Assembly: GCA_023135785.1 (NCBI GenBank)
Contig: JAGLSL010000008.1
Location: 1-48,222, forward strand
Length of the DNA: 48,222 nt
From: a bacterium
GTDB lineage: Bacteria; CAIJMQ01
Direction of reading: 5' to 3'
In this document: one piece after another, positions 5,992 to 48,222 of the stretch
How positions within the stretch are numbered: the stretch's first letter is position 1
Layout: each line of letters begins with the position of its first letter
Made by a program: the position numbers and the translations under genes
The notes under the pieces: generated by a model
What the model was told of the DNA's origin: nothing
What the model saw: the letters and a program-made list of their open reading frames with translations, nothing else
The model's database searches: none

Positions 5992-6048
5992 TGTCGTTTC
6001 CAAATCGCATACAATAGACCATACACTATAGATTATTGGTTGGTTTTT

Positions 6049-6120: not shown

Positions 6121-6121
6121 C

Positions 6122-10000: not shown

Positions 10001-10007
10001 AAGTCAA

Positions 10008-10187: not shown

Positions 10188-10192
10188 TTTTT

Positions 10193-22685: not shown

Positions 22686-22803
22686 AGATTAATTTAATAG
22701 AAAAAGTTTAGGCTTTACCAAAGTTTTAAAGCTAAAAACAGGGAAAGAAAACCTTGGGAGTATGACAGAAATGTCAAAAGACATTTCTTATCTCTAACGG
22801 GGT
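22676..22803. repeat. ACCCCGTTAGAGAT...ATCTCTAACGGGGT element (128 bp)
   Basis: Arms at 22676-22689 and 22790-22803 are identical to those of the 19881 element. The interior is unrelated but has the same layout, with the hairpin AGAAATGTCaaaaGACATTTCT before the right arm. The left arm supplies the dapF stop codon. Confidence 0.85.
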
Positions 22804-22820
22804 TTAGGAGAAGAAATAAA

Positions 22821-23993: not shown

Positions 23994-24047
23994 AATTGTC
24001 GGATTTTAAAAATTTTCTCCACTTTTAAAAAATTTAACTTATTTTTT

Positions 24048-24062
24048 GCACAATTTTTGTGC
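24048..24062. promoter_or_regulatory. palindromic operator candidate GCACAA-ttt-TTGTGC, abutting TGC-TATAAT (extended -10 at 24060-24068)
   Basis: Perfect 6+3+6 palindrome. The same motif occurs at 28948-28962 and, with one mismatch, at 31197-31211. Confidence 0.5.
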
Positions 24063-24093
24063 TATAATTTCATCTGTTGATTTAGTGAGATTT

Positions 24094-24129
24094 AACCACG
24101 ACGCCGTGGAAAGCGCCGTGGTTTTTTTA
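24094..24129 (+). terminator. intrinsic terminator or attenuator in the dapL-gdhA spacer
   Basis: AACCACG (24094-24100) pairs with CGTGGTT (24117-24123), followed by a T7 run. The direct repeat CGCCGTGG x2 offers an alternative, non-terminating partner at 24105-24109. Confidence 0.55.
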
Positions 24130-24131
24130 TT

Positions 24132-24158
24132 TTGTAATATTAGAAAAAGTGGTAAAAT
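24132..24158 (+). promoter_or_regulatory. second promoter candidate for gdhA (TTGTAA-N15-TGG-TAAAAT)
   Basis: Extended -10 TGGTAAAAT at 24150-24158. The spacer is short at 15 nt. Confidence 0.3.
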
Positions 24159-24216
24159 CCACAAAGCAGTGATAACGACAAAGGTGTCTAACAAGTTAAG
24201 TGAGGAGGTTAGTTCT

Positions 24217-25554
24217 ATGTCTAATAAGATTGAATCTTTTATGGAAAAAATCATCAAGAAAAATCCTGGTGAACAGGAATTCCATCAGGCGGTAAAAGAG
24301 GTAGCTGAATCTGTGATACCGTTTATTGAAAAGAACCCAAAATATAAAAAAGCTAAGATATTAGAAAGAATAGCAGAACCCGAGAGAGTAATAATGTTCC
24401 GCGTTCCTTGGCTTGACGATAAAGGTGAAGTCCAAATTAACCGCGGCTTCCGCGTTCAAATGAACAACGCTATCGGCCCGTACAAAGGGGGACTACGTTT
24501 TCATCCCACTGTTTATTTAGGACTTTTAAAGTTTCTTGCTTTTGAACAGGTTTTCAAAAATAGCCTAACAACCCTTCCTATGGGTGGAGGCAAAGGCGGT
24601 TCTGACTTTGACCCTAAAGGAAAATCAGATAACGAAGTAATGAAGTTCTGCCAAAGTTTCATGACAGAACTTTGCAGACATATAGGCCCTAACACCGACA
24701 TACCTGCAGGAGATATCGGCGTAGGAGGACGTGAAATCGGCTTCATGTTCGGTCAATACAAACGTCTCCGCAACGAATTCACTGGCATCCTCACAGGCAA
24801 AGGTCTCAACTGGGGCGGTAGCTTAATCAGACCTGAAGCCACAGGTTATGGTTGTGTTTATTTTGTGGAAGCAATGTTAAAACACAAAGGAGATACATTA
24901 AAAGGAAAAACTTGCGCAGTATCAGGTTCCGGTAATGTTGCACAATATACAGCAGAGAAAGTAAACCAGTTGGGAGGAAAATGTGTTACCCTTTCCGACT
25001 CAAACGGTACAATTTACGACCCTAAAGGCATAGACGAGAAAAAATTAGCATATGTCATGGAACTTAAAAACGTAAAACGCGGTCGTATCAAAGAATATGC
25101 TAAAAAATACGGATGCAAATATTCCGAAGGCAAACGTCCTTGGGGCGTAAAATGCGATATTGCTTTCCCATCTGCAACACAAAATGAGATAAGCAAATCA
25201 GATGCAAAAGAGCTGGTTAAAAACGGTTGTATAGCTGTGGGAGAAGGCGCAAACATGCCTACAACACCTGAAGCTATAACAGTCTTCCAGAAGGCTAAGA
25301 TTCTATACGGTCCCGGCAAAGCAGCTAACGCTGGCGGGGTTTCTACTTCAGGACTTGAAATGTCACAGAATAGCCAAAGGCTTCCTTGGTCAAGAAAAGA
25401 AGTTGACAACAAACTTCATGAAATTATGGTTAATATACATCAGACATGTGTTAAATATGGGACAGAAGGTAAATACGTCAACTATGTAAAAGGAGCAAAT
25501 ATCGGCGGATTTGTAAAAGTCGCCGATGCAATGTTAGATCAAGGTCTGGTATAA
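24217..25554 (+). CDS. gdhA: NADP-specific glutamate dehydrogenase
   Basis: 445 aa from MSNKIESFMEK, with RBS GAGGAGG at 24202-24208. GGGKGGSDFDPKGKSD active-site motif and GSGNVAQY dinucleotide fold. Confidence 0.95.
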   Translation: MSNKIESFMEKIIKKNPGEQEFHQAVKEVAESVIPFIEKNPKYKKAKILERIAEPERVIMFRVPWLDDKGEVQINRGFRVQMNNAIGPYKGGLRFHPTVYLGLLKFLAFEQVFKNSLTTLPMGGGKGGSDFDPKGKSDNEVMKFCQSFMTELCRHIGPNTDIPAGDIGVGGREIGFMFGQYKRLRNEFTGILTGKGLNWGGSLIRPEATGYGCVYFVEAMLKHKGDTLKGKTCAVSGSGNVAQYTAEKVNQLGGKCVTLSDSNGTIYDPKGIDEKKLAYVMELKNVKRGRIKEYAKKYGCKYSEGKRPWGVKCDIAFPSATQNEISKSDAKELVKNGCIAVGEGANMPTTPEAITVFQKAKILYGPGKAANAGGVSTSGLEMSQNSQRLPWSRKEVDNKLHEIMVNIHQTCVKYGTEGKYVNYVKGANIGGFVKVADAMLDQGLV

Positions 25555-25591
25555 AAATAAAAAGCGCAAAGTTTGCGCTTAACTCATAGAC

Positions 25592-25635
25592 AAAGGCGTT
25601 CCTATCTATAATTAAAGATAGGAACGCCTTTTTTG
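25592..25635 (+). terminator. intrinsic terminator after gdhA
   Basis: AAAGGCGTTCCTATCT-ataattaa-AGATAGGAACGCCTTT is a 16-bp stem followed by a T-run. It is preceded by a smaller hairpin, AAGCGCAAagtTTGCGCTT (25562-25580). Confidence 0.85.
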
Positions 25636-25654
25636 TCAAAATTAGGAAGAAACT

Positions 25655-26167
25655 ATGGACTTTAGAATATTACTGGAGAAAATAACGCCTGCACTGAAAC
25701 ATATTGCGCGAAAACATTTATTATATGGTTTTTATGATGAGAAAGACCTTTACCAAGAAATGTGTCTTTATCTGTGGCAGAATTACGCAAACGGACTACC
25801 GATAGGCATAAATGAAGCATATGTGATCAAGGGATGCGAATTCCATATACAGAATTTCTTAAGAAAAGGCAGACCCAAAACACCTCTTTCAAGCCTTGAT
25901 AAACTAATATCTCCCGAAGGATTAACTTTGGGCGATATTCTTGAAGATAAAAAAACAAACCTTGAATTAGATATAGATTGCAAACTTACAATTGATAAAA
26001 TAAAAAGCATAGGGTTAAACGACAAAGAACGAAAGGTATTCTATTCTTTGCTTAAAGGATATACTGTTCGAGAGATAGCAAAAGAAATAGGATGTTCACA
26101 TGTTATGGTTATTAAGCATAAAAAGAACATAACAAAAAAATGGCAAAAAAAAGGTTACCAAGAGTAG
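25655..26167 (+). CDS. small sigma-70-family (ECF-like) sigma factor
   Basis: 170 aa. Region 2-like DLYQEMCLYLWQNY and region 4 HTH LNDKERKVFYSLLKGYTVREIAKEIGCSHVMV. Confidence 0.6.
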   Translation: MDFRILLEKITPALKHIARKHLLYGFYDEKDLYQEMCLYLWQNYANGLPIGINEAYVIKGCEFHIQNFLRKGRPKTPLSSLDKLISPEGLTLGDILEDKKTNLELDIDCKLTIDKIKSIGLNDKERKVFYSLLKGYTVREIAKEIGCSHVMVIKHKKNITKKWQKKGYQE

Positions 26168-26236
26168 TATATTTTTACTTAATACCATTGAAACACTCAG
26201 AAGTGTAAAGAAAACAAATTTAGGTAGTTTAGACAT

Positions 26237-26280
26237 AGGCGTCTTATCAATTTAATAAAATTGGCAAGACGCCTTTTTAT
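26237..26280 (+). terminator. intrinsic terminator after the sigma-like gene
   Basis: AGGCGTCTT...AAGACGCCT stem followed by TTTTTATTTTT. Confidence 0.7.
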
Positions 26281-26308
26281 TTTTAAAAAATTAAAAAAGG
26301 AGGGGAAG

Positions 26309-27070
26309 ATGCTAAAGAAGTCAAGGGGAAGGTTTAATGTATTGTCAGTAGCGGTTCTATTTTTAACTGTATTTGTTTCTTCTAATTGTTATGCTCAGGA
26401 AGGATTATTAGAAAATACGGACATAGGGATAAGTTCTGATGTAGGGATCTATTCAAAATACATCTGGAGAGGATTTAAGCTTGACGATGACCCGGTAATG
26501 CAGTCGGGAATTTACACAAGCATTAAAGGACTTACTGTTAGCATATGGGGAAGTTTTGATGTCGGAACAGAAGACAGCTTGAATTCAGATGAAGTTGACT
26601 ATTCAATAGATTACACTTATGAATTCGAAGATTACCTTAGCTTGTCGGTGGGACATAATTATTATGATTTCCCGCCAGCAGATCTATTTACTAAAGAGTT
26701 TTATATCGGCATGGGTTCTAATGTGCTACTTTCCCCAACTCTGACTTGGTATAGAGATTATGGAGACGAAGACAAAGGTGGTGGCGACGGCAGTTACACG
26801 GTTTTAGGCCTAAGTCACAGCTTTCCTTTGGGGGATTCGCCTGTTAGTTTGGACTTGAGCGGACATGTAGGATATAACGATAAACTTTTCATACAGGGCG
26901 AAGGAGGCGATACGGCTTTTAGCATTGGTTTAACTGTTCCTTTAACTGAAAAGATAACATTTAGTCCAAATGCTAATTATTCTATGCCATTCGGAGACCT
27001 CAAAGATGAAGATGACGGGAATCAGGAAGAAGAATTTTATTATGGGTTCACTATGGCATTTGATTTTTAA
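26309..27070 (+). CDS. putative outer-membrane beta-barrel porin (TorF / TIGR02001-like)
   Basis: 253 aa from MLKKSRG, with RBS AAAGGAGGGG. Signal peptide ending in YAQE. Alternating beta-strand pattern, YSKYIWRGF, and a C-terminal F. Upstream of amt, as is common for this family (from memory). Confidence 0.6.
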   Translation: MLKKSRGRFNVLSVAVLFLTVFVSSNCYAQEGLLENTDIGISSDVGIYSKYIWRGFKLDDDPVMQSGIYTSIKGLTVSIWGSFDVGTEDSLNSDEVDYSIDYTYEFEDYLSLSVGHNYYDFPPADLFTKEFYIGMGSNVLLSPTLTWYRDYGDEDKGGGDGSYTVLGLSHSFPLGDSPVSLDLSGHVGYNDKLFIQGEGGDTAFSIGLTVPLTEKITFSPNANYSMPFGDLKDEDDGNQEEEFYYGFTMAFDF

Positions 27071-27091
27071 AAATAGAAAGGAGGATGAAAT

Positions 27092-28462
27092 ATGTTAAAA
27101 ATGTTACATAGAGTATTAAAAGTAATTCCACTAGCGCTATTATTTACTTTCGGATTGGCAATATACGCATTTGCCGATGAGCCTAGTGCAGCAAGTAATG
27201 CCGTAGCCATTAATACCGTCTGGACTCTGGTAGCGGCATTCTTAGTTTTCTTTATGCAGCCGGGTTTTGCTATGGTTGAGGTCGGTTTTACCAGGGCAAA
27301 AAATGCCTCAAATATTTTAATGAAAAATCTTATGGATTTTTCAGTGGGTTCAATTGCTTTCTGGCTGGTAGGTTTTGGGATTATGTTTGGTGCGGATAAA
27401 TTAGGTCTTTTTGGCACCAGCGGATTTTTCTTAAGTGCCGCTAATCCTGCAACAGGGGAAGGCTTATGGCAATTTGCTTACTGGATGTTTCAAATAGTAT
27501 TTGCCGCTACCGCTGCTACCATCGTTTCAGGAGCAATGGCGGAAAGGACAAAATTTCCGGCCTATCTAATTTACTCGGTTTTCATCTGTGCCTTAATCTA
27601 TCCTGTAGTGGGCCACTGGATTTGGGGCGGCGGCTGGCTTTCAAGTAAAGGAATAATTGATTTTGCCGGTTCAACAGTAGTTCATTCAGTGGGCGGTTGG
27701 GCGGCCTTGGCCGGAGCAATATTGCTAGGTCCGAGGCTGGGGAAATACAACAAGGATAAAACCTCTAATGCTATTCCCGGGCATAACATTCCCTTAGCTG
27801 CATTGGGCGTGTTTATCCTCTGGTTTGGCTGGTTTGGTTTTAACGCTGGAAGCACGACTGCCGGCACTAATTTAAGTATTGCCACTATTGCAGTAACCAC
27901 TAATTTAGCTGCTGCAGCCGCTGCGATTACAGCTATGTTTACTGCCTGGAAAAAATTCGGGAAGCCGGATACCAGTATGGCTTTTAACGGAGCATTAGCT
28001 GGTTTAGTAGCCATAACCGCTCCCTGTGCCAGTGTATCCCCTTTGAGCGCGATTATTATCGGGGCGATAGCCGGTATATTAGTAGTTCTTAGTGTTGAGT
28101 TTATAGATAAAGTTCTACATATTGACGACCCCGTAGGAGCAATATCGGTTCATGGCGTTTGCGGTGCTTGGGGTACTCTTTCAGTCGGGCTCTTTGCTCA
28201 AAGTGCTTATGGCCAGTCAAGCGGAATAGGCGCTGTAAACGGTTTTTTCTTCGGAGGAGGATTATCACAGTTTTTTACTCAATTATTAGGCGTGGGTTCA
28301 GTATTCATATGGGTATTTGGAACCGCCTCAATTCTCTTCTTTATTATTAAGAAAACTATAGGATTAAGAGTATCCAAAGAAGATGAGTTGAAAGGTCTGG
28401 ATATTACTGAACATGGCATGGAGTCTTATGCTGGGTTTCAGATATTTACTACAGAAAAATGA
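27092..28462 (+). CDS. amt: ammonium transporter
   Basis: 456 aa. Signal peptide and about 11 TM helices. FFMQPGFAMVE.G, D.AGS.VVH..GG and GVHG.CG motifs. Confidence 0.95.
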   Translation: MLKMLHRVLKVIPLALLFTFGLAIYAFADEPSAASNAVAINTVWTLVAAFLVFFMQPGFAMVEVGFTRAKNASNILMKNLMDFSVGSIAFWLVGFGIMFGADKLGLFGTSGFFLSAANPATGEGLWQFAYWMFQIVFAATAATIVSGAMAERTKFPAYLIYSVFICALIYPVVGHWIWGGGWLSSKGIIDFAGSTVVHSVGGWAALAGAILLGPRLGKYNKDKTSNAIPGHNIPLAALGVFILWFGWFGFNAGSTTAGTNLSIATIAVTTNLAAAAAAITAMFTAWKKFGKPDTSMAFNGALAGLVAITAPCASVSPLSAIIIGAIAGILVVLSVEFIDKVLHIDDPVGAISVHGVCGAWGTLSVGLFAQSAYGQSSGIGAVNGFFFGGGLSQFFTQLLGVGSVFIWVFGTASILFFIIKKTIGLRVSKEDELKGLDITEHGMESYAGFQIFTTEK

Positions 28463-28530
28463 AAAGTACTAGCAAGCGTCCCGGCATTATGTCGGGACTA
28501 CTTGCTACCTTATAATAGGAGGATATTAAT

Positions 28531-28872
28531 ATGAAACTTATAATTGCAATGATACAACCGCACAAATTACCGGATGTAAAAAAAGCGCTCTATGATGCGA
28601 AAGTTTATAAAATGACTGTCTCCAATGCATTAGGTTGCGGGCAACAAAAAGGATTTAGTGAAACTTACCGTGGCGTAATCCACGAAGTGAATTTATTGAA
28701 AAAAGTAAGACTGGAGATAGCAGTTAACAAAGATTTTGTTGAACCAACAATTAACGCAATCATTAAAGGAGCAAGAACCGGCAACATCGGAGACGGCAAG
28801 ATATTTGTTTTGGACTTACAGGAATGTATTAGAATAAGAACAGGGGAACGCGGATATGATGCTATAGGATAA
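28531..28872 (+). CDS. glnK: P-II nitrogen regulatory protein
   Basis: 113 aa. [16 protein letters not shown] and a T-loop with YRG; GDGKIFV...C.RIRTGE. Adjacent to amt. Confidence 0.9.
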
Positions 28873-28947
28873 ATTGTTTTTGAAGGTTACCAAAAGCTCT
28901 GTTTTTTTACTTGTTACAATGTCAAATGTACAAGTCTAAGCAATAGA

Positions 28948-28962
28948 GCACAAGGTTTGTGC
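28948..28962. promoter_or_regulatory. palindromic operator candidate GCACAA-ggt-TTGTGC upstream of glnA
   Basis: Perfect palindrome about 100 nt upstream of the glnA ATG. A second inverted repeat, CTTGTTACA-N8-TGTACAAG, lies at 28911-28934. Confidence 0.5.
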
Positions 28963-29060
28963 AAATGTATAGAAAATAATTTAAAACAAAGTTGTTTTAA
29001 TCCTGATGGGTTAGAACATTTTTTTATTTAGAATTAACAACTTAAAAATGGAGGTTTAAA

Positions 29061-30392
29061 ATGGCAAAGAAAACAAAACAGGACATTTTAAAATTGGTTA
29101 AGGAAAAAGATGTAAAGTTTATACGCTTGTGGTTTACCGATTTATTAGGGCAGGTGAAGAGTTTTTCAATCACAGACAAGGAATTAGAGAATGCGCTTGA
29201 TAATGGTATGGGATTTGATGGCTCTTCCGTTACAGGTTATCAGGACATAGAAGAATCAGACATGATTGCAATGCCTGACCCTGATACATTTGCGGTATTG
29301 CCGTGGAGGCCAACAGAGAAAGCTGTCGCCAGAATGATATGCGACGTATTAAACCCCGACAAGACTCCATATGAAGGGGATCCGCGTTATGTCTTAAAAA
29401 GAGCTCTAAAACGCGCAAGCAAAATGGGTTTTGACCATTTTTATTTAGGGCCGGAACTTGAGTTTTTCTATTTTAAAAACGATATAGGCACAGAGATACT
29501 TGATAAAGGCGGGTATTTCGACCTAACCACACTCGACGTAGCAAGCGATTTAAGGAGAGAAACAGTATTGGCTCTTGAAAAGATGGGTATAGACGTTGAA
29601 TATTCGCATCATGAAGTAGCCCCATCTCAACATGAAGTCGATATGAAATATAAAGATGCGCTCGAGATGGCAGACAACGTTATAACTTACAGGGTTGTCG
29701 TAAAAGAGATTGCAAGTAAATTCGGAGTATATGCCACCTTTATGCCAAAACCTATTTTTGGGCAAAACGGTTCAGGAATGCATGTACATCAATCGCTATT
29801 CAAAGGAAAGAAAAACGCGTTTTTTGACAAAAATACAAAAGATAATTTATCAGATACAGCTCAAAGCTACATAGCAGGTCTTTTAAAATACTCAAAAGAG
29901 ATATGTTCTATCTTTGCGCAAACTACCAATTCGTATAAAAGATTAGTCCCGGGTTTCGAAGCACCGGTATACATAGCATGGAGCCGCAGGAACCGAAGCG
30001 CGCTTGTAAGAGTGCCGCTTTATTATCCCGGCAAAGAAAACGCTACCAGATGCGAATTCCGGGCAGGTGATCCTGCGTGTAATCCTTACATTACCTTTGC
30101 CGCTATGCTTCACGCGGGATTAGAAGGCGTAGAAAAGAAATATAAAGCGCCTAAGCCTATGGACCAGAATTTGTATCATTTAACTGCTGCAGAAAGAAAA
30201 GCTAAAGCTATCGAAACGCTTCCCGATAATCTTGGGAATGCAATCGCTCTAACCGAAAACAGCGAACTTGTTAAAAAGGTTCTGGGAAATCATATCTTCC
30301 CTAGATTCATCGAGCTGAAGAAGAAAGAATGGGACGATTATAGAATTCAAGTTCCTCAACACGAACTTGATAAGTATCTTTCTATTCTATAG
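29061..30392 (+). CDS. glnA: glutamine synthetase, type I
   Basis: 443 aa. FTD..G......I, GPE.EFF, GSGMH.H.S, NSYKRLVPG.EAP and the R.PD...NPY region. Confidence 0.95.
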   Translation: MAKKTKQDILKLVKEKDVKFIRLWFTDLLGQVKSFSITDKELENALDNGMGFDGSSVTGYQDIEESDMIAMPDPDTFAVLPWRPTEKAVARMICDVLNPDKTPYEGDPRYVLKRALKRASKMGFDHFYLGPELEFFYFKNDIGTEILDKGGYFDLTTLDVASDLRRETVLALEKMGIDVEYSHHEVAPSQHEVDMKYKDALEMADNVITYRVVVKEIASKFGVYATFMPKPIFGQNGSGMHVHQSLFKGKKNAFFDKNTKDNLSDTAQSYIAGLLKYSKEICSIFAQTTNSYKRLVPGFEAPVYIAWSRRNRSALVRVPLYYPGKENATRCEFRAGDPACNPYITFAAMLHAGLEGVEKKYKAPKPMDQNLYHLTAAERKAKAIETLPDNLGNAIALTENSELVKKVLGNHIFPRFIELKKKEWDDYRIQVPQHELDKYLSIL

Positions 30393-30448
30393 CAAGCCGA
30401 AAGTTACTGTTATTACTATTATCATAAGCAAATATAATAGATTTTAAT

Positions 30449-31168
30449 ATGAGTTTATCGCAAGAAATCAGCAATTGGATAGAAAAGCAAGTTAAAAACG
30501 CCAATAAAAAAGGTATTGTTTTAGGACTGAGCGGGGGAATTGATTCTTCGGTAGTAGCGGTTTTATCGAAGAAAGCATTAGGCGATAATGTTCTCGGGTT
30601 ACTCCTTCCCTGTAATAGTTCCAACATAGACGAGAGGTTGGCAACGGAACTTGCAAACACATCCAACATAAAAACCAGGAAGATAGATTCGTCCGGCCTC
30701 TTTAATCAGCTAATTAATATAAATCCCAAAGCAAATGACCTGGCTAAAGCCAATTTGAAACCCAGGTTGAGAATGCTGATTTTGTATTATTTTGCTAACT
30801 CATTGGATTATTTAGTAGCAGGTACCGGAAACAAAAGCGAGATAATGACAGGTTACTTTACCAAACACGGTGATGGAGGCTGTGATGTTTTGCCTTTGGG
30901 AGGATTATTGAAAACAGAAGTGAAAAGTTTAGCAAGAGAGTTGAATCTTCCATCTGAAATTATAAAAAGACCGCCAACTGCGGGGCTTTGGGAAGGGCAA
31001 ACAGATGAATCCGAAATGGCTATAACTTATAAAGATTTAGATAAATGTCTTATAGCAATTGAAAGTAAAACTTTTAAAAATCTTAAAGAATCGGACTTAA
31101 AAAGAGTACGGTTGATGATTAAGAAATCACACCATAAAAGAAAAAGAATTCCAATGTTCTATTTTTAA
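30449..31168 (+). CDS. nadE: NH3-dependent NAD+ synthetase
   Basis: 239 aa. SGGIDSS PP-loop and GTGNKSE..TGYFTK.GDGG. There is no glutaminase (CN-hydrolase) domain. Confidence 0.9.
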   Translation: MSLSQEISNWIEKQVKNANKKGIVLGLSGGIDSSVVAVLSKKALGDNVLGLLLPCNSSNIDERLATELANTSNIKTRKIDSSGLFNQLININPKANDLAKANLKPRLRMLILYYFANSLDYLVAGTGNKSEIMTGYFTKHGDGGCDVLPLGGLLKTEVKSLARELNLPSEIIKRPPTAGLWEGQTDESEMAITYKDLDKCLIAIESKTFKNLKESDLKRVRLMIKKSHHKRKRIPMFYF

Positions 31169-31196
31169 AAAGAAATTGAAAAACTTGTTTAAAAAT

Positions 31197-31211
31197 GCAC
31201 AAGAATTGAGC
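31197..31211. promoter_or_regulatory. operator-like site GCACAA-gaa-TTGAGC, 8 nt upstream of the Fis-like gene
   Basis: One mismatch to the gdhA and glnA palindromes. Lies in the 50-nt nadE/Fis-like spacer. Confidence 0.4.
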
Positions 31212-31218
31212 GTTTTTT

Positions 31219-31446
31219 ATGATAGACAATATTTCTGATATATTGGATAAAGATTTTTATGATATAGACGCTGGCAAGATATATGCCAACATGGTCAACC
31301 GTGTTGAAAAAATAGTTATAACAAAAGCACTTGAGCGTTCATGCGGCAACCAGGTTGAGGCATCAAAGATACTCGGGCTACACCGCAATACTTTACATAG
31401 TAAGATAAAGAAGTTTAATATAGACATAATGAAATTTAAAAAATGA
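31219..31446 (+). CDS. stand-alone Fis-type (HTH_8) DNA-binding protein
   Basis: 75 aa. VEKIVITKALERSCGNQVEASKILGLHRNTLHSKIKKFNI matches the C-terminal HTH of the Fis and NtrC families. Stop overlaps the gltB start (ATGA at 31443). The RBS is weak. Confidence 0.6.
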   Translation: MIDNISDILDKDFYDIDAGKIYANMVNRVEKIVITKALERSCGNQVEASKILGLHRNTLHSKIKKFNIDIMKFKK

Positions 31447-37413: not shown

Positions 37414-37433
37414 ACATATAAAGGGTTATTAAA

Positions 37434-40058: not shown

Positions 40059-41155
40059 AGGCGAAACTTGCTCTTGAAGACGGGACGGTATGGGAAGGAT
40101 TAAATTTCGGCGCAAAAGGTGAAAGCTATGGTGAAATAGTTTTCAATACCAGCATGGCCGGCTATCAGGAAATACTTACCGACCCTTCCTACAAGGGTCA
40201 GATTGTTGCCATGACTTATCCCCTCATCGGAAATTACGGAATAAACAGCGAAGATGTGGAATCTATAAAACCCTTCTTAGAAGGTTTCGTAGTAAAAGAA
40301 TGCAGTCAAATCTCCAGTAGTTGGCGTTCAGAAAAAAGTCTGGATGAATACCTTAAAGAAAATAATATTATAGGCATAGAAGGCATAGATACGCGCGCTC
40401 TTACAAAACATATTAGATTGCAGGGAGCAATGAAAGCGGTAATCTCTACAAAAGATTTAGATAACAACTCATTAATCAAAAAAGCAAAAGCATCCGAGGG
40501 ATTGATAGGCAAAGATTTGGTCAAAGAGGTCACCTGTAAAAAAATACAAACTTGGAACGAGAGAGGTAAACACAAAGTTGTCGTATTGGATTGCGGGGTA
40601 AAATTCAATATCTTAAGAGAACTATCCAATAACAACTGTAAAGTGATTTTCCTGCCGGCTAAAACCGATGCAAAAACCATATTGGGTTTGAAACCTGACG
40701 GGCTACTACTCTCAAACGGCCCGGGCGACCCGGAAGGTGTTGCCTATGTTGTGGAAACCGTAAAAAAATTATTAGACAAGTTACCAATTTTCGGCATATG
40801 TTTCGGGCAACAAATGTTGGGGTTGGCTCTGGGCGGAAAAACATATAAATTAAAATTCGGACATCATGGAGCAAACCATCCCGTCAAAGATTTAAAAACA
40901 GGCAAAATTTACATAACCGCGCAGAATCACGGATTCTGTGTCGATATAAATTCTTTAAACAAAGAAGACATCGAAATTACACACGTAAACTTAAACGATA
41001 ATACTTTAGAGGGAATAAGACACAAAAAATTGCCCGTTTTTTCCGTGCAATTTCATCCTGAGGCAGGACCCGGTCCAAACGACGCAAAATACCTGTTCGG
41101 GGAATTTGTAGAGATGATGGATAAAGACAGAAGACAGAAAACAGACGACAGATGA
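40055..41155 (+). CDS. carA: carbamoyl-phosphate synthase small (glutaminase) subunit
   Basis: 366 aa. FGICFGQQ catalytic Cys and FSVQFHPEA. The last ~10 codons and the stop lie in the GACAGA word repeat. Confidence 0.95.
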   Translation: MKAKLALEDGTVWEGLNFGAKGESYGEIVFNTSMAGYQEILTDPSYKGQIVAMTYPLIGNYGINSEDVESIKPFLEGFVVKECSQISSSWRSEKSLDEYLKENNIIGIEGIDTRALTKHIRLQGAMKAVISTKDLDNNSLIKKAKASEGLIGKDLVKEVTCKKIQTWNERGKHKVVVLDCGVKFNILRELSNNNCKVIFLPAKTDAKTILGLKPDGLLLSNGPGDPEGVAYVVETVKKLLDKLPIFGICFGQQMLGLALGGKTYKLKFGHHGANHPVKDLKTGKIYITAQNHGFCVDINSLNKEDIEITHVNLNDNTLEGIRHKKLPVFSVQFHPEAGPGPNDAKYLFGEFVEMMDKDRRQKTDDR

Positions 41156-41222
41156 CAGAAAAGACAATAGGATTAATAATTTTTTAATTTCTGAGTTCTG
41201 TTTTCTGATATCTGACTTCTGA
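41126..41222. repeat. GACAGA/TCTGT word hairpin spanning the carA stop and the carA-carB spacer
   Basis: Left arm gacagaagacagaaaacagacgacagatgacagaaaagaca. Right arm tttctgagttctgttttctgatatctgacttctga is imperfectly complementary to it. Confidence 0.8.
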
Positions 41223-41229
41223 AAAAATT

Positions 41230-42951
41230 ATGCCTAAAAGAACGGATATAAAAAAGATATTAATAATCGGCGCAGGTCCTATCGTAATCGGACAGGCATG
41301 CGAATTTGATTATTCGGGAACACAGGCATGTAAAGTTCTCAAAGCCGAAGGATTTCATGTTATCCTGCTAAACAGCAATCCTGCAACGATTATGACAGAT
41401 CCGATAACAGCTGATAAAACATACATCGAGCCAATTACTCCCGAAATAGTTCAAAGAATTATTGAAAAAGAAAAACCCGACGCTATTCTGCCCACACTCG
41501 GCGGACAAACTGCGCTAAATGTTACCGTACAAGTTGCAGAAATGGGAATATTTGATAAATACAATGTGGAAGTCATAGGCGCAAATATACAAGCTATCAA
41601 AAAAGCCGAAAACAGAGAACTATTCAAAAAGGCAATGCATAAAATAGGGCTGGATTTACCCAGAAGCGACAAAGCGCACAGCTTAAAAGAAGCCTTAGAG
41701 GTGGTCGAAGAAATCGGAATTCCCGTAATTATAAGACCAAGTTTCACATTGGGAGGAACAGGCGGAGCAGTCGCATACAATATAGAAGAATTCAAACGAT
41801 TAGCTAAGACAGGTCTTGAATCGAGCATGATTAGCCAAATATTAATTGAAGAATCCGTCATCGGATGGAAAGAATTCGAATTGGAAGTTATGCGAGACGT
41901 AAAAGACAATGTTGTTATTATATGTTCTATAGAAAATTTTGACCCTATGGGGGTTCATACAGGTGATTCAATTACGGTTGCTCCCATACAAACTTTAACA
42001 GACAAAGAATATCAAAACATGCGTGATGCCTCAATTGCATGCATCAGAGAAATAGGTGTAGAAACAGGCGGTTCCAATGTTCAATTTGCGGTTAATCCGG
42101 ATAACGGACGAATGGTAGTTATTGAAATGAATCCCCGTGTATCAAGAAGTTCCGCATTGGCCTCCAAAGCAACAGGATTTCCCATTGCAAAAATAGCCGC
42201 AAAACTTGCCATAGGATATACGCTGGATGAAATTCCCAATGACATCACAAAAGAAACTCCCGCGTGTTTTGAACCAACAATCGATTATTGCGTAGTTAAG
42301 ATACCACGATTTACTTTCGAAAAATTCTCCGAAGCGAACGCTACTCTAACCGTATCCATGAAATCCGTAGGCGAGGCAATGGCAATCGGACGAACATTCA
42401 AAGAAGCGTTGCAAAAAGGATTAAGGTCTTTGGAAATAGGAGTAGACGGTCTTATGGATTTAAAATTTCAAGTTAGCGAAATTCAACTTTTCGAAAAGTT
42501 AAGAACTCCAAACGCCGAGAGAATTTTTTATATAAAATACGCATTAAAGAACGGTATGAATATAGACGATATTTATAAACATACTCAAATTGACAGATGG
42601 TTTTTACATAACATCCAAGAAATTGTAGAATTGGAAAAACAAATAACAGATTCCAGACAACAGATTTCAGACAACAGAAATCAGAAAATTAAAAATAAAA
42701 AACAAAAAGATATGTCATCTGATGTCCGTCCTCTGTCTTCTGATTTGTTATTGAAAGCTAAACAATTCGGGTTCAGCGACAAACAACTTGCAAGGATGCT
42801 AAAAACAGAGGAAGAAATTATTAGAAATTTACGTAATAAATTAAATATTAAAGCTGTATATAAATTGGTCGATACCTGCGGTGCAGAATTTGAAGCTTAC
42901 ACACCATATTACTATTCTACCTATGAAAAAGAAAACGAAAGCTGTAATTAA
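41230..42951 (+). CDS. carB: carbamoyl-phosphate synthase large subunit, N-terminal half only (first ATP-grasp plus oligomerisation domain)
   Basis: 573 aa. [30 protein letters not shown], then the ATP-grasp domain, ending at [27 protein letters not shown]. From memory this is where the second synthetase half of the ~1070-aa enzyme begins. Confidence 0.85.
42641..42752 (+). repeat. imperfect CAGA/TCTG word palindrome, in frame within carB
   Basis: aaataacagattccagacaacagatttcagacaacagaaatcagaa...tcatctgatgtccgtcctctgtcttctgatttgttatt. The ends AATAACA/TGTTATT are complementary. Encodes [34 protein letters not shown]. Confidence 0.75.
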
Positions 42952-44485
42952 AGAATATGTTGCGATTCTGGATTTTGGTTCGCAATACACGCAATTAATC
43001 GCTCGCAGAGTAAGAGAGTGTAAAATCTATTCCGAAATATTCCCATATACCGTCTCCCTTAAAAAAATTATCGCGGACAAACCCAAGGCTATCATTCTAT
43101 CCGGCGGGCCGGCAACAGTTACCTTGAGCAAGAGTCCGACTATATCAAAGCAGATATTCGAACTTGGGATTCCCGTATTAGGCATATGCTACGGCATGCA
43201 ACTTATGGCAAAATTATTTGACGGTAAAGTGAAGCGTTCTCCAAACCGCGAATATGGAAATGCAAAATTAAACATAGCAAAATCCGACAAAATTTTTAGC
43301 GGACTTAGCAAAAACTTCACCGTCTGGATGAGCCATGGGGACCAAGTACTGACTCTTCCCAAAGATTTCAAGGCAATCGCATACAGTTCAAACGCCAAAA
43401 TAGCAGCAATACAGAATAAAACAAAAAAATTATACGGCGTCCAGTTTCATCCTGAGGTAGTCCATACTCCTCAAGGTTTAAAAATAATAGATAATTTCTT
43501 AAAGAAAATATGCGGATGTTCTGCCAGCTGGACAATAAGTTCATTTATTAAAAATTCCGTAAAAGATATAAGAAAAGAAGTGGGAAACAACCGCGTTATT
43601 TGCGCTTTAAGCGGCGGAGTAGATTCTTCCGTATTGGCAATTCTTCTGCATAAAGCAATAGGGAAGAGACTTTCATGTGTTTTTGTTGATAACGGCTTAT
43701 TACGAAAAAATGAAGCGGCGCAAATTGTTAAAAAATTTAAACAGCAGTATAAACTAAATCTAATTCATGTCGATGCAAGTAAAAGATTTATAAAAGAATT
43801 AAAAGGTGTCATTGATCCTGAGGAAAAACGGCATATTATCGGTAAGGAATTCATAAAAGTATTTGAAGCCGAGGCAAAGAAATCAGGTAAAATAAAATTT
43901 TTGGCGCAAGGAACTCTTTATCCCGATGTAGTAGAATCTCAGTCCGTATTTGGAGGGCCTTCTGCCACAATAAAATCACACCATAATGTCGGAGGACTGC
44001 CCAAGAATATGCAATTTAAACTTATTGAACCATTCAGATCCTTATTCAAAGACGAAGTAAGAAAAGTCGGAGAAGAACTAAAACTTCCAGAAAACATAAT
44101 ATGGAGGCAACCTTTTCCCGGACCCGGATTGGCGGTAAGAATAATAGGAGAAATAACCGAAGAAAGAATAAATATCTTAAAAGAAGCTGATTCAAGAATT
44201 CAGGATGAAATAAAAGCCGCAGGTCTTTATAAAGAAATCTGGCAATCTTTCGGAGTCCTTCTTCCGATTAAAACAGTCGGGGTTATGGGGGACGAACGAA
44301 CTTATGAAAATGTTATTACTATAAGAGCCGTAACAAGTCAGGACGGCATGACTGCAGATTGGGTAAAATTGCCGTATGAATTACTGGGTAAAATTTCCAA
44401 CAGAATAATTAATGAAGTTAAAGGTGTAAACAGAGTGGTTTATGATATTTCAAGTAAACCGCCGGCAACAATTGAATGGGAATAA
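42923..44485 (+). CDS. guaA: GMP synthase (glutamine-hydrolysing)
   Basis: 520 aa from [39 protein letters not shown], the FHPE GATase triad, the SGGVDSS PP-loop and a C-terminal PPATIEWE. Overlaps the carB 3' end by 29 nt. Confidence 0.95.
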
Positions 44486-44492
44486 CAAACTA

Positions 44493-44606
44493 CAGAAAAT
44501 AGAAATACGGTAGATATACGATAGAAATATGGTAGAAATATATAACAAGATGCAGGTAGGCAATTTATTTCCATTATATTTCAATGTATTTCGATTTATT
44601 TCTTTC
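44493..44606. repeat. GAAATA/TATTTC word hairpin upstream of hisH
   Basis: Left arm acagaaaatagaaatacggtagatatacgatagaaatatggtagaaatat. Right arm aatttatttccattatatttcaatgtatttcgatttatttct. Homologous to 6468-6556. Confidence 0.8.
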
Positions 44607-44634
44607 TTATTTTATCGAACGAAGTGAGGTAAAT

Positions 44635-45261
44635 ATGATAGCAATAATTGACTACGGGATGGGAAATTTAAGAAGTGTTAGCAAAGCTCTGGAATCTGTC
44701 GGCGCAAAAACTATAGTCACAAATAAACCCGAAGACATAAAATCCGCCGATGCAGTAATCCTGCCAGGAGTTGGCGCATTTTACAGAGGCATGGAAAATC
44801 TAAAGGATAAAAAACTTTTGCCCGTTATATCCGAAGCTGTAAAAAGCAAAAAGCCCTTTTTGGGCATTTGCTTAGGATTACAACTCTTATTCACAGAAAG
44901 CGAAGAACACGGTATATCCAAAGGATTGGGGCTAATAAAAGGACGCGTTAAAAAATTCTCCTCCGGCTTAAAAATTCCACATATGGGATGGAACCAAATA
45001 AGACTAAAGACCGAAGACCAAAGACCAAAGACCATAAACTTATTTAAAGATATACCGGATGAAAGTTATTTTTACTTCGTGCATTCTTATTACGTAGAGC
45101 CTGAAGACAAAAACACTATTATTGCTACTACCAATTATGGCGAAAATTTTGTTTCGGCAATAAATAAAGATAATATATGGGGTGTCCAATTTCACCCCGA
45201 AAAAAGCTCGGATTTGGGATTAAAAATTTTAAAAAATTTCGTTGAATCAATAAAAAAATAA
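44635..45261 (+). CDS. hisH: imidazole glycerol phosphate synthase, glutaminase subunit
   Basis: 208 aa from MIAIIDYGMGNLRS. GICLGLQ catalytic Cys, HMGWN and QFHPEKS. The ORF-track start at 44584 lies in a repeat arm. Confidence 0.95.
   Translation: MIAIIDYGMGNLRSVSKALESVGAKTIVTNKPEDIKSADAVILPGVGAFYRGMENLKDKKLLPVISEAVKSKKPFLGICLGLQLLFTESEEHGISKGLGLIKGRVKKFSSGLKIPHMGWNQIRLKTEDQRPKTINLFKDIPDESYFYFVHSYYVEPEDKNTIIATTNYGENFVSAINKDNIWGVQFHPEKSSDLGLKILKNFVESIKK
45001..45035 (+). repeat. heptamer AGACC(A/G)A x4-5, in frame within hisH
   Basis: agactaa agaccga agaccaa agaccaa agaccat encodes LKTEDQRPKT, in a loop about 6 aa longer than I recall for E. coli HisH. Confidence 0.8.
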
Positions 45262-45267
45262 TGTTAG

Positions 45268-45291
45268 CCCCGTTAGAAATATTTTAACGGG
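45268..45291. repeat. minimal CCCCGTTAGAAAT...TTAACGGG hairpin (arms of the ACCCCGTTAGAGAT family without an interior)
   Basis: CCCGTTA/TAACGGG stem in the hisH-hisF spacer. The right arm runs into the hisF RBS GGGAGG. Confidence 0.55.
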
Positions 45292-45306
45292 AGGAAAAGA
45301 TAACAA

Positions 45307-46110
45307 ATGGAAAAAGAAACTAAATTTCTAACAGGGTTAGCAAAAAGAATAATACCCTGCTTAGACGTAAAAGGCGGACGTGTTGTAAAAGGCATTAAGT
45401 TCCGTGAACACCGTGACGCCGGCGATCCTGTAGAACTTGCCTTTTTTTATAATAAAGAGGGTGCTGATGAGCTGGTATTCTACGACATTACAGCATCCAG
45501 TGATGAGCGTTCCATAATGCTTGATGTGGTTCGGCGAACAGCTAACCAGCTTTTTATACCCCTTACCGTAGGTGGCGGTCTGCGTACTGTGGATGACATG
45601 AACCAAATGCTGAAAGCCGGAGCGGACAAAATATCTATTAATACCGCAGCAGTAATGAACCCCAAATTGATATCAGAGGGCGCGCAACGCTTCGGCAGTC
45701 AATGCATAGTGCTTGGAATGGATGCCAAGCGTATCCCCGATTCAAATCCAGTTCGCTGGATTATTCACACTCATACAGGCGCGGACGGAGGACATTCCGC
45801 AGGTCTGGATGCAATAGACTGGGCAAAACAGGCAGTGGAACTGGGAGCGGGCGAGATTGTGGTAAACAGTATTGATGCCGATGGCACTAAAAAGGGATAT
45901 GACCTGGAGTTGCTACGCGCTATTTCAGAAAATGTTTCAGTCCCTGTAGTTGCCAGCGGCGGAGCAGGTAATTTAGACCATCTTGCCGAAGCCCTGACTA
46001 AAGGCAAAGCCGATGCAGTCCTCGCCGCTTCAATCTTTCATTATGGCGAATATTCAATTAAAGAAGCAAAAGAATATCTTAAAAAGAAGGGAATTCTTGT
46101 AAGAATATAA
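45307..46110 (+). CDS. hisF: imidazole glycerol phosphate synthase, cyclase subunit
   Basis: 267 aa. [26 protein letters not shown] and ASGGAG...ASIFH. Confidence 0.95.
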
Positions 46111-46242
46111 TAGTAACCAGTAACCTGTGTACTGTAACCAGAAAAATATGAAAGAAAATTTCCAGTTCGATTTTGAAAAGTTGAGTGTATATCTATGTAG
46201 ATTTTTAACTGTGAACTGTAAACTGGTTACTGTTAACTAACC
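46111..46242. repeat. GTAAC/GTTAC word hairpin between hisF and purF
   Basis: Left arm tagtaaccagtaacctgtgtactgtaaccag. Right arm taactgtgaactgtaaactggttactgttaactaacc. Confidence 0.8.
46148..46240 (+). pseudogene. 30-codon ORF, possibly the N-terminal remnant of a four-helix-bundle (23S rRNA IVS-type) protein gene
   Basis: MKENFQFDFEKLSVYLCRFLTVNCKLVTVN*. The first 15 aa resemble the F.FE.L.VY(Q/K) N-terminus I recall for TIGR02436-type proteins. The remainder is read-through of the right repeat arm. Confidence 0.3.
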
Positions 46243-46261
46243 GAGCATAAGCGAGGTAAAC

Positions 46262-47638
46262 GTGTGCGGAATATTTGGAATATACGGTCATAAAGATGCA
46301 TCTCGGCTCACCTATCTGGGGCTTTATGCTCTCCAGCATCGCGGTGAAGAAAGCGCCGGCATAGTTTCCGCTAACGGTGGCGGCAAAGTAAAATCCCATA
46401 ATGGTATGGGGCTTGTATCCGATGTCTTCAAGGAAAAAACCATAAAATCTCTTCACGGAAATGTAGCAGTTGGTCATGTCCGTTATTCAACAACCGGTTC
46501 AAGCATTTCCAAAAACATACAGCCGTTTCTTGTAGCTCACCGAAAAGGTCATATAGCAATTGCTCATAACGGCAATCTCGTAAACACTAAACAATTGCGA
46601 CACGGGATGGAGAACAAGGGATCCATTTTCCAAACCTCAATGGATTCGGAGCTTGTAGTCCACCTAATTGCGAAATCGGATAAAAAAGATAAGAAACACA
46701 TTATTATAGAGGCCCTATCACAACTTGAAGGCGCTTATTCAATAATTCTAATGATGAACAATACATTAATCGGAGCAAGAGACCCTTACGGATTTAGACC
46801 CCTTTGCGTAGGCAAACTTGACGGGGCATATGTACTGGCAAGCGAAACCTGCGCATTAGATTTAATACAGGCAAAATATGTCCGCGATATAGAACCAGGC
46901 GAGATTGTGTTTATTGACAACCAAGGACTTCGCTCCATTAAACCTTTCCCGCCCCAAAAACACGCATCCTGTATATTTGAATACATATATTTCTCAAGAC
47001 CTGACAGTAATATATTCGAAAAAAACGTTTACTTGACAAGAAAGCGATTAGGCAAACAGCTTGCAAAAGAACATCCCGTCAAAGCCGATTTAATAATGCC
47101 TATCCCAGACTCAGGCAACTACGCAGCGCTCGGTTTCGCAGAAGCATCCAACATACCATACGAAATAGGAATGATACGAAATCATTATATCGGCAGAACA
47201 TTTATCCAGCCGTCACAGTTTATACGCGATTTCAAAGTAAAAATTAAGTTAAATCCCATAAAAGACGTGCTTAAAGGTAAGCGCATAGTAATAATAGAAG
47301 ATTCCATAGTAAGAGGCACAACAAGCCGCATAAGAGTAAAAACCCTAAGAGAAGCAGGCGCAAAAGAAGTCCATATGCGGGTAAGTTGTCCTCCGCTTAT
47401 ATCGCCCTGTTTCTACGGCATAGATTTCCCCACAAAAAAAGAACTCATTGCTTCAAACCGCACAATTGAAAGCATAAAAAATTTTATAGGATTAGACAGC
47501 CTAAAATATCTAAGTTTGGAAGGTATGCTCAAATCAATGTTATTGCCGAAAGAAGAATTTTGTACGGCATGTTTCACAGGCAATTATCCAATTAAGTTAT
47601 CTAAAAAAGTTTCTAAAAAAATGCTGGAGAAAAATTAA
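46262..47638 (+). CDS. purF: amidophosphoribosyltransferase
   Basis: 458 aa. GTG start followed by the Ntn Cys (MCGIFGI). The PRTase motif [12 protein letters not shown] and an Fe-S Cys context. Confidence 0.95.
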
Positions 47639-47639
47639 A

Positions 47640-48222
47640 ATGCCAAAATATATATTTATAACCGGTGGCGTAGTTTCAAGTCTGGGTAAAGGAATAGCTT
47701 CTGCTTCAATAGGTAAACTTCTAGAATCAATGGGCTTAAAAATAACCATTATAAAATGCGACCCGTATATAAATGTTGACCCCGGCACAATGAATCCGTT
47801 CCAGCACGGTGAAGTTTATGTCACTGACGACGGCGCCGAAACAGATTTGGACTTAGGTCATTATGAACGCTTCACAAACGCAATCGTCGGCAAAGCCAAT
47901 AATATAACCAGCGGCAAAGTATATTATTCGGTTATCTGTAAAGAAAGAAAAGGCGAATTCCTCGGCGGAACAGTTCAGGTAATTCCTCATATCACAGACG
48001 AGATAAAGTCACAGATAAAAAATGCTTCAAAAGGCAAAAATTTGGATATAGTAATAGTTGAAATCGGCGGAACTGTCGGTGATATAGAAAGCTTACCTTT
48101 TATGGAAGCAATCAGACAGATGACTTTGGAACTGGGCAGAAAAAATGCAATAAACATACACCTTACCCTTGTACCTTATATTAAAAGCGCGCAAGAAATA
48201 AAAACAAAACCTACACAGCATA
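47640..48222 (+). CDS. pyrG: CTP synthase (5' partial, runs off the window)
   Basis: My own translation gives [78 protein letters not shown], with no stop before the window end. Starts 1 nt after the purF stop. Not in the ORF track. Confidence 0.9.

Follow-up and report, generated by a model that had tools for sequence, protein, structure and literature searches.

A probable nitrogen supra-operon in Candidatus Omnitrophota: ammonia and glutamine genes in one block with predicted ANTAR-type attenuators

The window analysed here is a stretch of 48,222 nucleotides (contig JAGLSL010000008.1 of assembly GCA_023135785.1). From position 24217 to the window edge (48222), it contains an unbroken + strand run of genes for ammonia and glutamine metabolism, the nitrogen block. 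Gene identities are based on an open reading frame (ORF) listing and on NCBIfam and Pfam profile scans of the window proteins. The order is gdhA, a sigma-like/GerE gene, a porin gene, amt, glnK, glnA, nadE, an HTH_8 gene, gltB, gltD, a PPDK_N gene, carA, carB-N (the N half of carB), guaA, hisH, hisF, purF and pyrG (Table 1). All named genes exceed NCBIfam curated cut-offs except glnK and the porin. They had been placed on the + strand, at about these positions, by an earlier sequence-only reading, which overlooked three genes: those for the 170-amino-acid (aa) sigma-like/GerE, 75-aa HTH_8 and 874-aa PPDK_N proteins. Two of the ATGA junctions it listed therefore belong to other gene pairs; that at 31443 is an HTH_8/gltB overlap, not nadE/gltB, and that at 40055 is a PPDK_N/carA overlap, not gltD/carA. 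Its remaining tight junctions are as described: gltB and gltD overlap by 8 bp (35968/35975), carB-N and guaA overlap by 29 bp (42923/42951), and purF and pyrG are separated by 1 bp (47638/47640). The block ends at pyrG: an identical contig (L001) has this gene in full, followed by one on the other strand. The window's 874-aa protein is encoded with identical sequence in the Candidatus Omnitrophota metagenome-assembled genome GCA_030639545.1; many Omnitrophota-named proteins are homologues of 73-98% identity.

Three groups of genes may be distinguished in the block. The porin, amt and glnK would serve ammonia entry and sensing; gdhA, glnA and gltBD would form the supply line from NH3 to glutamate and glutamine; and nadE, carAB, guaA, hisHF, purF and pyrG would spend NH3 or the glutamine amide at the entry to their pathways. 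The proposal that almost every gene here handles NH3 or the glutamine amide holds. Within the block, nadE and gdhA are NH3 users, not glutamine users. The wider statement, that all glutamine consumers are collected, goes too far. Amidotransferases of several pathways are gathered; glmS, asnB, gatA, trpG, pabA and purL/Q are not in the window. Six glutamine-amidotransferase enzymes are found among the last 12 genes. The genome-wide probability of this under random placement is about 4e-7 to 1e-6, assuming 1500-2500 genes and 15-25 amidotransferase genes per genome.

Relatives were sampled with the window's 874-aa PPDK_N protein as anchor. Sixty loci were taken from species-representative genomes, and all window proteins were mapped onto them. 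These loci are not near-identical strains; protein identities are 58-88%. The core amt-glnK-glutamine synthetase-HTH_8-gltBD-PPDK_N is nearly invariant in the 60 species-level loci, and gltD lies directly 5' of the PPDK_N gene in 49 of 56. Of the 38 loci that extend far enough upstream, 36 have gltB, 33 a glutamine synthetase (GS), 28 glnK, 27 amt and 24 an HTH_8 gene before gltB. The GS of relatives is either type I or a divergent enzyme of about 730 aa (Pfam GSIII_N in L071 and L072). Homologues of the sigma-like/GerE gene precede amt in five loci (L010, L013, L019, L041 and L055) and follow a GAF-ANTAR gene in L069 and L070; the porin-amt pairing is also found in L016 and in L069/L070.

The genes recruited downstream vary between lineages. 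Among the 32 loci with at least 6 kb of downstream sequence, one or more amidotransferase genes are present in 25, two or more in 20 and three or more in 10; the counts are too low for L013 and L038. Depending on lineage, the recruited glutamine users are carAB, pyrG, purF, purSQL, guaA, hisH or a lone class-I amidotransferase, and both order and combination differ. In some loci pyrG precedes carA, in others it follows purF; the position of gdhA varies as well, and a stand-alone class-I amidotransferase joins the block in six loci. Other additions are gdhA and nfnAB-gdhA. No recurrent glutamine-independent pur, pyr or his gene was found among 102 other flanking ORFs (148 Pfam families); this agrees with the sequence-only reading that pathway partners are absent and that the glutamine-using steps are gathered. 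The genes are not dispersed in relatives, since the supply genes stay linked and glutamine users keep joining them in the 60 loci. Linkage is conserved, and GS and glutamate synthase (GOGAT) genes stay together; a fixed gene order is not conserved. A gene set that is linked in variable order across 60 species-level loci is a conserved gene neighbourhood, or uber-operon. The best evidence for a real theme is that different glutamine users have been recruited repeatedly and independently.

Two further arrangements were noted. An NfnA/NfnB-like pair (FAD/NAD-binding and GltA-type subunits) is encoded at 440-2700 of the window, and in several relatives nfnAB lies directly 5' of gdhA, behind an ANTAR-type leader; this adjacency suggests NADPH supply for the NADP-specific GdhA. 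In L066 (14273-16807), pyrG and carA are separated by a 381-aa ORF without Pfam match and, after it, HisH-like and HisF-like genes. This trio may be a WbuX/Y/Z-type sugar amidation system rather than histidine genes.

The leaders of the block contain candidate attenuators. ANTAR proteins recognise two small hairpins, P1 and P2, with hexanucleotide loops carrying A at position 1 and G at position 4 (A1/G4); P2 overlaps an intrinsic terminator, and ANTAR regulons concentrate on nitrogen genes (PMC3369931). The leaders are read as ANTAR targets because their hairpin pair largely fits this published definition (PMC3369931). Both the dual hairpin and the overlap of P2 with a terminator are present before the sigma-like gene and glnA, and the overlap is also present before the porin gene. 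Folding of the window leaders gave the expected structures, least convincingly for gdhA. The P2 consensus is RRAC-[A-W-N-G-R-Y]-GTYY; the 3' bases of the loop and the 3' stem form the 5' arm of the terminator (GGCGTTC..GAACGCC plus U-run). Searches for cis elements covered the loci and the window, 1.04 Mb in the count of the promoter block described below. Elements consisting of a P2 hairpin plus terminator number 54 on the cluster strand versus 6 on the other strand and 1-4 in Markov shuffles. Intergenic copies are found 14-220 nt upstream of glnA, a divergent glnA paralogue, gdhA, nfnA, amt, the GerE gene, fis-gltB, carA and pyrG. An upstream P1 with A1/G4, a stem of at least 4 pairs and a 6- or 7-nt loop accompanies 28 of the 54 elements, compared with 11% of random windows (p ~1e-13). 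There are 27 clear dual hairpins with linkers of 2-19 nt, two of them in the window (25562-25600 and 28948-29000), and the glnA-type architecture precedes glnA in about 20 loci.

P1 stems vary in sequence and stay paired; they include gcac/gtgc, gcgc/gcgc, gatac/gtatc, agttc/gaact and aatac/gtatt. In P2, stem pair 4-17 is GC in 19 copies, AU in 13, GU in 2 and unpaired in 6. None of 500 shuffles reaches the observed P2 covariation, and slid controls score much lower. The 5' RRAC segment covaries with the GTYY of the terminator 5' arm. The independent covariation evidence is that of pair 4-17 and the outer pairs, because the search required the inner three pairs. Every P2 loop has 6 nt, and all 52 aligned copies carry A1 and G4, although the search pattern itself fixed G4 and limited position 1 to A or T.

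Other explanations of these leaders were sought. No Rfam family matches the window leaders at the gathering threshold; hits with E up to 10 in 23900-31500 are chance-level matches to unrelated families. The covariance model of the glutamine riboswitch (glnA RNA) has no match in the leaders, and a generic dual-hairpin scan of the window, which has a high background, found nothing beyond the three leaders. The hairpins after gdhA and after the sigma-like gene were considered as terminators and are better read as leaders of the next unit. At window position 133, the motif falls within the ORF of a small membrane protein and was set aside. The glnA-type GCACAA-N3-TTGTGC palindromes were also considered as NtrC-like DNA operators; this was rejected, as their stems vary with compensatory changes, their loops share A1/G4 with the second hairpin, and they sit downstream of a promoter-like block.

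That promoter-like block, GTTACC-N16-TACTT(A/G)T, occurs in 29 copies in 1.04 Mb, all 29 of them upstream of glnA, GSIII, amt or fis-gltB. Sites of the sigma-54 -24/-12 type (TGGCAC-N5-TTGCW, up to 2 mismatches) have 16 matches versus 16.6 expected, and none lies inside a leader. The third conserved element, box B, is a 17-bp dyad of the layout TGC-N11-GCA (TGCCTAAAAATTAGGCA or TGCACAAAATTTAGGCA type), with 49 hits compared with 1-5 in shuffles. Most copies stand 6-30 nt upstream of the HTH_8 gene; others precede gdhA and nfnA. Box B is not an ANTAR hairpin, because it has no G at loop position 4 and is positioned after the terminator; it is possibly a DNA operator, which would add a further layer of control.

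Table 1. Genes and cis elements of the nitrogen block and its leaders (window coordinates)
Feature	Position	Strand	Evidence and remarks
gdhA leader	23994-24216	+	Dyad, terminator-like hairpin and T-run at ~24095-24130, mini-hairpins; weakest leader
17-bp dyad TGCACAATTTTTGTGCT	24047-24063	+	In gdhA leader; abuts TGcTATAAT extended -10-like sequence
gdhA, NADP-specific glutamate dehydrogenase	24217-25554	+	NF006929, 779 bits (cut-off 536)
Predicted attenuator before sigma-like gene	25562-25640	+	P1 aagcgcAAAGTTTgcgctt 25562-25580; P2 gacAAAGGCgtt 25589-25600, overlapping strong terminator 25589-25637, then U-run; minimum free energy -38.7, z -9.4
ECF-sigma-like/GerE (LuxR-type) helix-turn-helix gene, 170 aa	25655-26167	+	TIGR02937 sigma70-ECF, 43.0 bits (cut-off 42.9), full-length; Pfam GerE, 28 bits
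Predicted attenuator before porin-amt-glnK	26231-26290	+	P2 agacATAGGCgtct 26231-26244, overlapping terminator 26237-26274 and U-run; z -4.8
TorF/Gcw_chp outer-membrane porin	26309-27070	+	Pfam PF09694, 30 bits (cut-off 24); under NCBIfam cut-off
amt, ammonium transporter	27092-28462	+	TIGR00836, 482 bits
glnK, P-II signal protein	28531-28872	+	Full-length P-II match, 110 bits, below cut-off; Pfam P-II in L001
Promoter-like block GTTACC-N16-TACTTGT before glnA	28886-28914	+	Leader alignment across species
Predicted attenuator before glnA	28948-29025	+	P1 gcacAAGGTTTgtgc 28948-28962; P2 ttaaaacAAAGTTgttttaa 28981-29000, overlapping terminator 28993-29018 and U7; z -3.1
glnA, type I glutamine synthetase	29061-30392	+	TIGR00653, 550 bits
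nadE, short NH3-dependent NAD+ synthase, 239 aa	30449-31168	+	TIGR00552, 270 bits; no glutaminase domain
Box B dyad TGCACAAGAATTGAGCG	31196-31212	+	6 nt before HTH_8 gene
Stand-alone HTH_8 (Fis/NtrC DNA-binding-domain type) gene, 75 aa	31219-31446	+	PF02954, 49 bits
gltB, glutamate synthase	31443-35975	+	NF008730, 1788 bits
gltD, glutamate synthase	35968-37413	+	TIGR01317, 612 bits
PPDK_N-domain gene, 874 aa	37434-40058	+	PF01326, 167 bits
carA	40055-41155	+	TIGR01368, 522 bits
carB, N half only, 573 aa	41230-42951	+	NF003671, 919 bits, profile positions 1-545 of 1058
guaA, glutamine-hydrolysing GMP synthase	42923-44485	+	NF000848, 833 bits
hisH, imidazole glycerol phosphate synthase	44584-45261	+	TIGR01855, 258 bits
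hisF, imidazole glycerol phosphate synthase	45307-46110	+	TIGR00735, 378 bits, above cut-off; WbuZ model below its cut-off
purF	46262-47638	+	TIGR01134, 540 bits
pyrG	47640 to window edge	+	NF003792, 360 bits; 543 aa in L001

The 24 kb of the block do not form a single transcript unit, as three terminator-type hairpins with U-runs lie inside it. Because these internal hairpins are strong, the block is read as several units; no comparable + strand terminator was found between glnA and the window edge. There are probably four units, judging by these signals: gdhA; the sigma-like gene; porin-amt-glnK; and glnA to pyrG (about 19 kb).

Regulators of the ANTAR type are encoded at related loci. Proteins with GAF and ANTAR domains were located by consensus-based tblastn and then identified with Pfam (PF13185 and PF03861; 72 bits for PF03861). 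In L045 and L063, the gene lies inside the cluster. It heads GerE-PII-porin-amt-PII-glnA in L069/L070 and amt-PII-amt-PII-GSIII in L071/L072; in one contig it is located elsewhere. The GAF-ANTAR family is 67-88% identical across many Omnitrophota-named proteins. The co-regulation proposed by the sequence-only reading thus gains in silico support from three conserved cis elements common to the transcription units and from GAF-ANTAR genes linked in relatives.

From these data, we consider it probable that the block is a lineage-typical nitrogen supra-operon of Candidatus Omnitrophota, whose units would respond jointly to nitrogen status by way of transcription attenuation. Two A1/G4 hairpins would be present in each regulated leader, the second competing with an intrinsic terminator; a GAF-ANTAR protein would bind both loops once a signal of nitrogen or carbon status is sensed by its GAF domain, and read-through would follow. 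For this genome, the protein would be encoded outside the window. A dedicated promoter, GTTACC-N16-TACTTRT, may form an extra layer, possibly read by the ECF (extracytoplasmic function)-like sigma/GerE protein of the cluster, which is a candidate cluster-specific transcription factor. The TGC-N11-GCA dyad before the HTH_8 gene and gdhA may form another, possibly bound by the 75-aa HTH_8 protein. Gene content, its conservation, the positions and covariation of the cis elements and the linkage of GAF-ANTAR genes in relatives are observed; the pairing of proteins with elements, the signal, the limits of the operons and the direction in which control acts are what we infer from sequence.

One of the overlooked genes encodes a very highly conserved protein. 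The 874-aa protein has a KaiC/RecA-fold N-domain, in which no Walker A motif was seen on inspection, an ATP-grasp domain of the PPDK type and a conserved C-domain. Most of the 60 loci encode it at 67-88% identity, and one at 58%. An AlphaFold model has a pLDDT (predicted local distance difference test) score of 75.7; Foldseek relates it to rifampin phosphotransferase/phosphoenolpyruvate (PEP)-synthase-type ATP-grasp and to KaiC/FlaH proteins at the level of domain folds only, and a sequence search of the Protein Data Bank returned nothing useful. The protein is flagged as probably taking part in nitrogen metabolism. Its Geobacter-type homologues, about 1470 aa long, are tandem duplications.

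The half-size CarB is not peculiar to the window. Other Omnitrophota loci also match only the N half at this place, and the remaining loci have full-length carB. Neither in the window nor in the other N-half-only loci does a C half lie next to carB-N. A search for a stand-alone CarB C half mostly returned contig-end fragments; the match in L073 resembles a frameshifted full-length gene.

A bolder form of the model may be called a glutamine economy in cis. One GAF-ANTAR antiterminator, a sigma-like factor and a mini HTH_8 protein would throttle uptake, GS-GOGAT and the purine, pyrimidine, GMP, histidine and NAD entry steps as one module; the 874-aa protein would be a new enzyme or an ATP-dependent nitrogen regulator, and the half CarB would perhaps work without its C half. 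This extended form is tentative, and we regard it as rather doubtful in its entirety.

A number of observations weigh against the supra-operon reading. No ANTAR gene was found in the window. P1 loops keep A1/G4, and in many copies they have 7 nt (AAnGTTT) where 6 is canonical; they could close to 5 or 3 nt, and hexaloop and heptaloop P1 copies occupy different registers in one alignment. The window's gdhA leader shows no clear terminator overlap, and it folds no better than shuffles (z -0.57); it has two 3-bp mini-hairpins with AAAG-type hexaloops at about 24160-24188, just 5' of the ribosome-binding site. The hairpin at 26193-26206, upstream of the porin-amt P2, lacks an A1/G4 loop. In the window, the spacers before carB, hisH and purF contain no attenuator element, and the case for co-regulating these genes is only that terminators are not predicted there. 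The P2 search demanded a stem of at least 3 pairs, and pairing of the inner three is partly by construction. All 60 loci were reached via the PPDK_N protein, and the sample covers Omnitrophota that have it. Lastly, Geobacter-type homologues of this protein adjoin sugar genes (alpha-amylase/PGI or PFK, the genes of phosphoglucose isomerase and phosphofructokinase) rather than nitrogen genes; its link to nitrogen genes is therefore specific to the Omnitrophota lineage.

The recruited genes can also be described by what they make. Nucleotide synthesis would then be the organising principle, its committed or nitrogen-donating steps adjoining the nitrogen supply as the main nitrogen sink of small fast-turnover cells: carAB and pyrG serve pyrimidines, purF, purSQL and guaA purines, nadE NAD, and hisHF the purine-linked histidine branch. 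All added enzymes except gdhA/nfnAB and the lone amidotransferase do belong to nucleotide, NAD or histidine metabolism, the last being linked through AICAR (aminoimidazole carboxamide ribonucleotide), and glmS, asnB, gatA and trpG, glutamine users outside nucleotide metabolism, never appear. However, purD/M/N/C/B/H, pyrB/C/D/E/F, guaB and hisA/B are not recurrent in the window or among the 102 flanking ORFs, and the class-I amidotransferase that joins in six loci is not explained. Nucleotide synthesis is an unlikely organising principle on this evidence; it overlaps with the glutamine reading, and the two are not mutually exclusive. Physical proximity is another conceivable benefit. Assembly or channelling of ammonia and glutamine (a metabolon, or co-translational assembly) would account for adjacency in place of co-regulation, and overlapping or tight junctions do unite the subunit pairs gltB/gltD, carA/carB and hisH/hisF, as well as the 874-aa gene and carA. 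Order-dependent assembly is disfavoured because gene order among non-subunit members varies, and we consider this explanation very improbable.

The palindromes might instead be DNA operators for NtrC/Fis- or GerE-type proteins, with each hairpin and T-run a plain terminator of the preceding gene and with control at initiation only. The NtrC box is TGCACCA-N3-TGGTGCA, and the dyads resemble it in their 7-3-7 TGC-N11-GCA layout. HTH_8 and GerE proteins are encoded in the cluster, box B lacks the loop G4 and follows the terminator, and the window gdhA dyad abuts a -10-like sequence. Several observations point the other way. P1 stems change sequence and keep pairing, which points to RNA rather than a fixed operator, and the covariation of the 4-nt segment 5' of the hexaloop with the terminator 5' arm would be needless in a plain terminator. 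The elements also precede first genes after non-cluster DNA (e.g. L013 position 79), ANTAR genes are linked to the cluster, and sigma-54 promoter-like sites are missing from the leaders. Control at initiation only is therefore a poor prospect, less so than assembly or channelling. It is hardly credible that the block has no functional meaning and arose neutrally through genome reduction and strand bias, or by horizontal acquisition as an island. Small genomes often have long runs of genes on one strand. Omnitrophota genomes are reduced, according to a 2023 survey (PMC10066038). However, the genome-wide chance is about 1e-6, tens of species show the theme with independently added genes, and the cis elements are shared. 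Neither does the block look like an island; its GC content equals that of the rest of the window, and no mobility genes were seen in it or at its edges.

Several repeats were noted in the spacers. The hisH-hisF spacer contains a hairpin (CCCGTTA...TAACGGG, 45269-45291) whose 3' arm overlaps the hisF Shine-Dalgarno sequence; on inspection, no U-run follows. The edges of the hisF-purF spacer (46111-46140 and 46207-46245) carry inverted heptamer repeats of the GTAACCAG/CTGGTTAC type; similar GTTACCAGAAACCAG repeats precede the HTH_8 gene in L061. A period-11 tandem unit, TAGAAATACGG, is found both before tig (6469-6500) and before hisH (44500-44540). Period-7 tandem repeats are scattered over the window, in spacers and also in coding sequence (e.g. 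41124-41160 and 45000-45034).

Apart from dapF-dapL directly upstream, the 24 kb before gdhA show no nitrogen theme; they contain the nfnAB-like genes, a methyltransferase, tRNAs, tig-clpP, rplM-rpsI, 6S RNA, pdxA, ispH and others. dapF and the glutamate-dependent LL-diaminopimelate aminotransferase (21864-23993) are on the same strand as the block, and all related loci are too short upstream for comparison; the pair may or may not belong to it. The 6S RNA lies at 10006-10191 (Rfam RF00013, 95.6 bits). An 894-aa protein (2833-5517, - strand) weakly matches a MAD2 defence-system DNA methyltransferase; next to its gene are tRNA-Leu and tRNA-Gly (5866-6121), in the lowest-GC part of the window (0.32-0.34).

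Parts of this arrangement are already known: amt-glnK-GS-GOGAT clusters, ANTAR nitrogen regulons and shuffled-but-linked neighbourhoods. In Proteobacteria, nitrogen operons include amtB-glnK, glnA-ntrBC and gltBD; in Bacteroidota, amt-glnK-GS-asnB-gltBD. The Omnitrophota block resembles these classical operons in that transporter, P-II, GS and glutamate synthase are linked and nitrogen-regulated (predicted so here). To our knowledge, classical clusters end at the supply line, with at most asnB added; the Omnitrophota block runs on into five other pathways. Classical clusters are controlled at initiation by NtrC/sigma-54, GlnR/TnrA or NtcA, whereas no sigma-54-like sites lie in the Omnitrophota leaders. 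Uber-operons, or connected gene neighbourhoods, reportedly described by Lathe, Snel and Bork in 2000 and by Rogozin et al. in 2002, are said to keep related operons together while their internal order is shuffled. The Omnitrophota neighbourhood is likewise kept across species with shuffled order; in contrast, its theme is a shared co-substrate (NH3 or the glutamine amide), not one pathway or machine. The large subunit of carbamoyl-phosphate synthetase is split in Aquifex aeolicus and Methanocaldococcus jannaschii. The half-size carB likewise covers the N-terminal ATP-grasp and oligomerisation domains; a partner C half was not located for the window's genome and is not adjacent to carB-N.

ANTAR antitermination regulons are known for EutV, NasR and AmiR, and others have been predicted in Desulfotomaculum and Pelobacter (Ramesh et al. 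2012, PMC3369931). The Omnitrophota leaders share with them the dual hairpins, largely with A1/G4 loops, a P2 over an intrinsic terminator, several units per genome, an ANTAR protein linked to its targets, and the targets themselves: P-II, ammonium transporters, and glutamine and glutamate synthases. They differ from the regulons of that paper in that the sensor partner is GAF, P1 loops are often 7 nt and the regulon is concentrated in one block. They also reach carA and pyrG leaders and, by operon fusion, guaA, hisHF and purF, none of which that paper mentions (PMC3369931). Apparently new here are the gathering of amidotransferases of the pur, pyr, gua, his and NAD pathways on the supply line, and carA and pyrG leaders with the same attenuator. 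Searches of the open-access literature yielded no published account of a cluster like this one or of any nitrogen cluster from Omnitrophota.

Bacterial gene clusters are usually read as pathways or machines; the common denominator of the Omnitrophota block is a shared nitrogen donor. Since this theme is kept across many species despite changes in gene order, selection for joint control of nitrogen supply and spending is implied. Omnitrophota is a candidate phylum, with no isolate reported in the 2023 survey (PMC10066038). For this phylum, the block offers a testable regulatory model composed of an ANTAR attenuator, a dedicated promoter and a dyad operator, and it extends predicted ANTAR control to nucleotide-entry amidotransferases.

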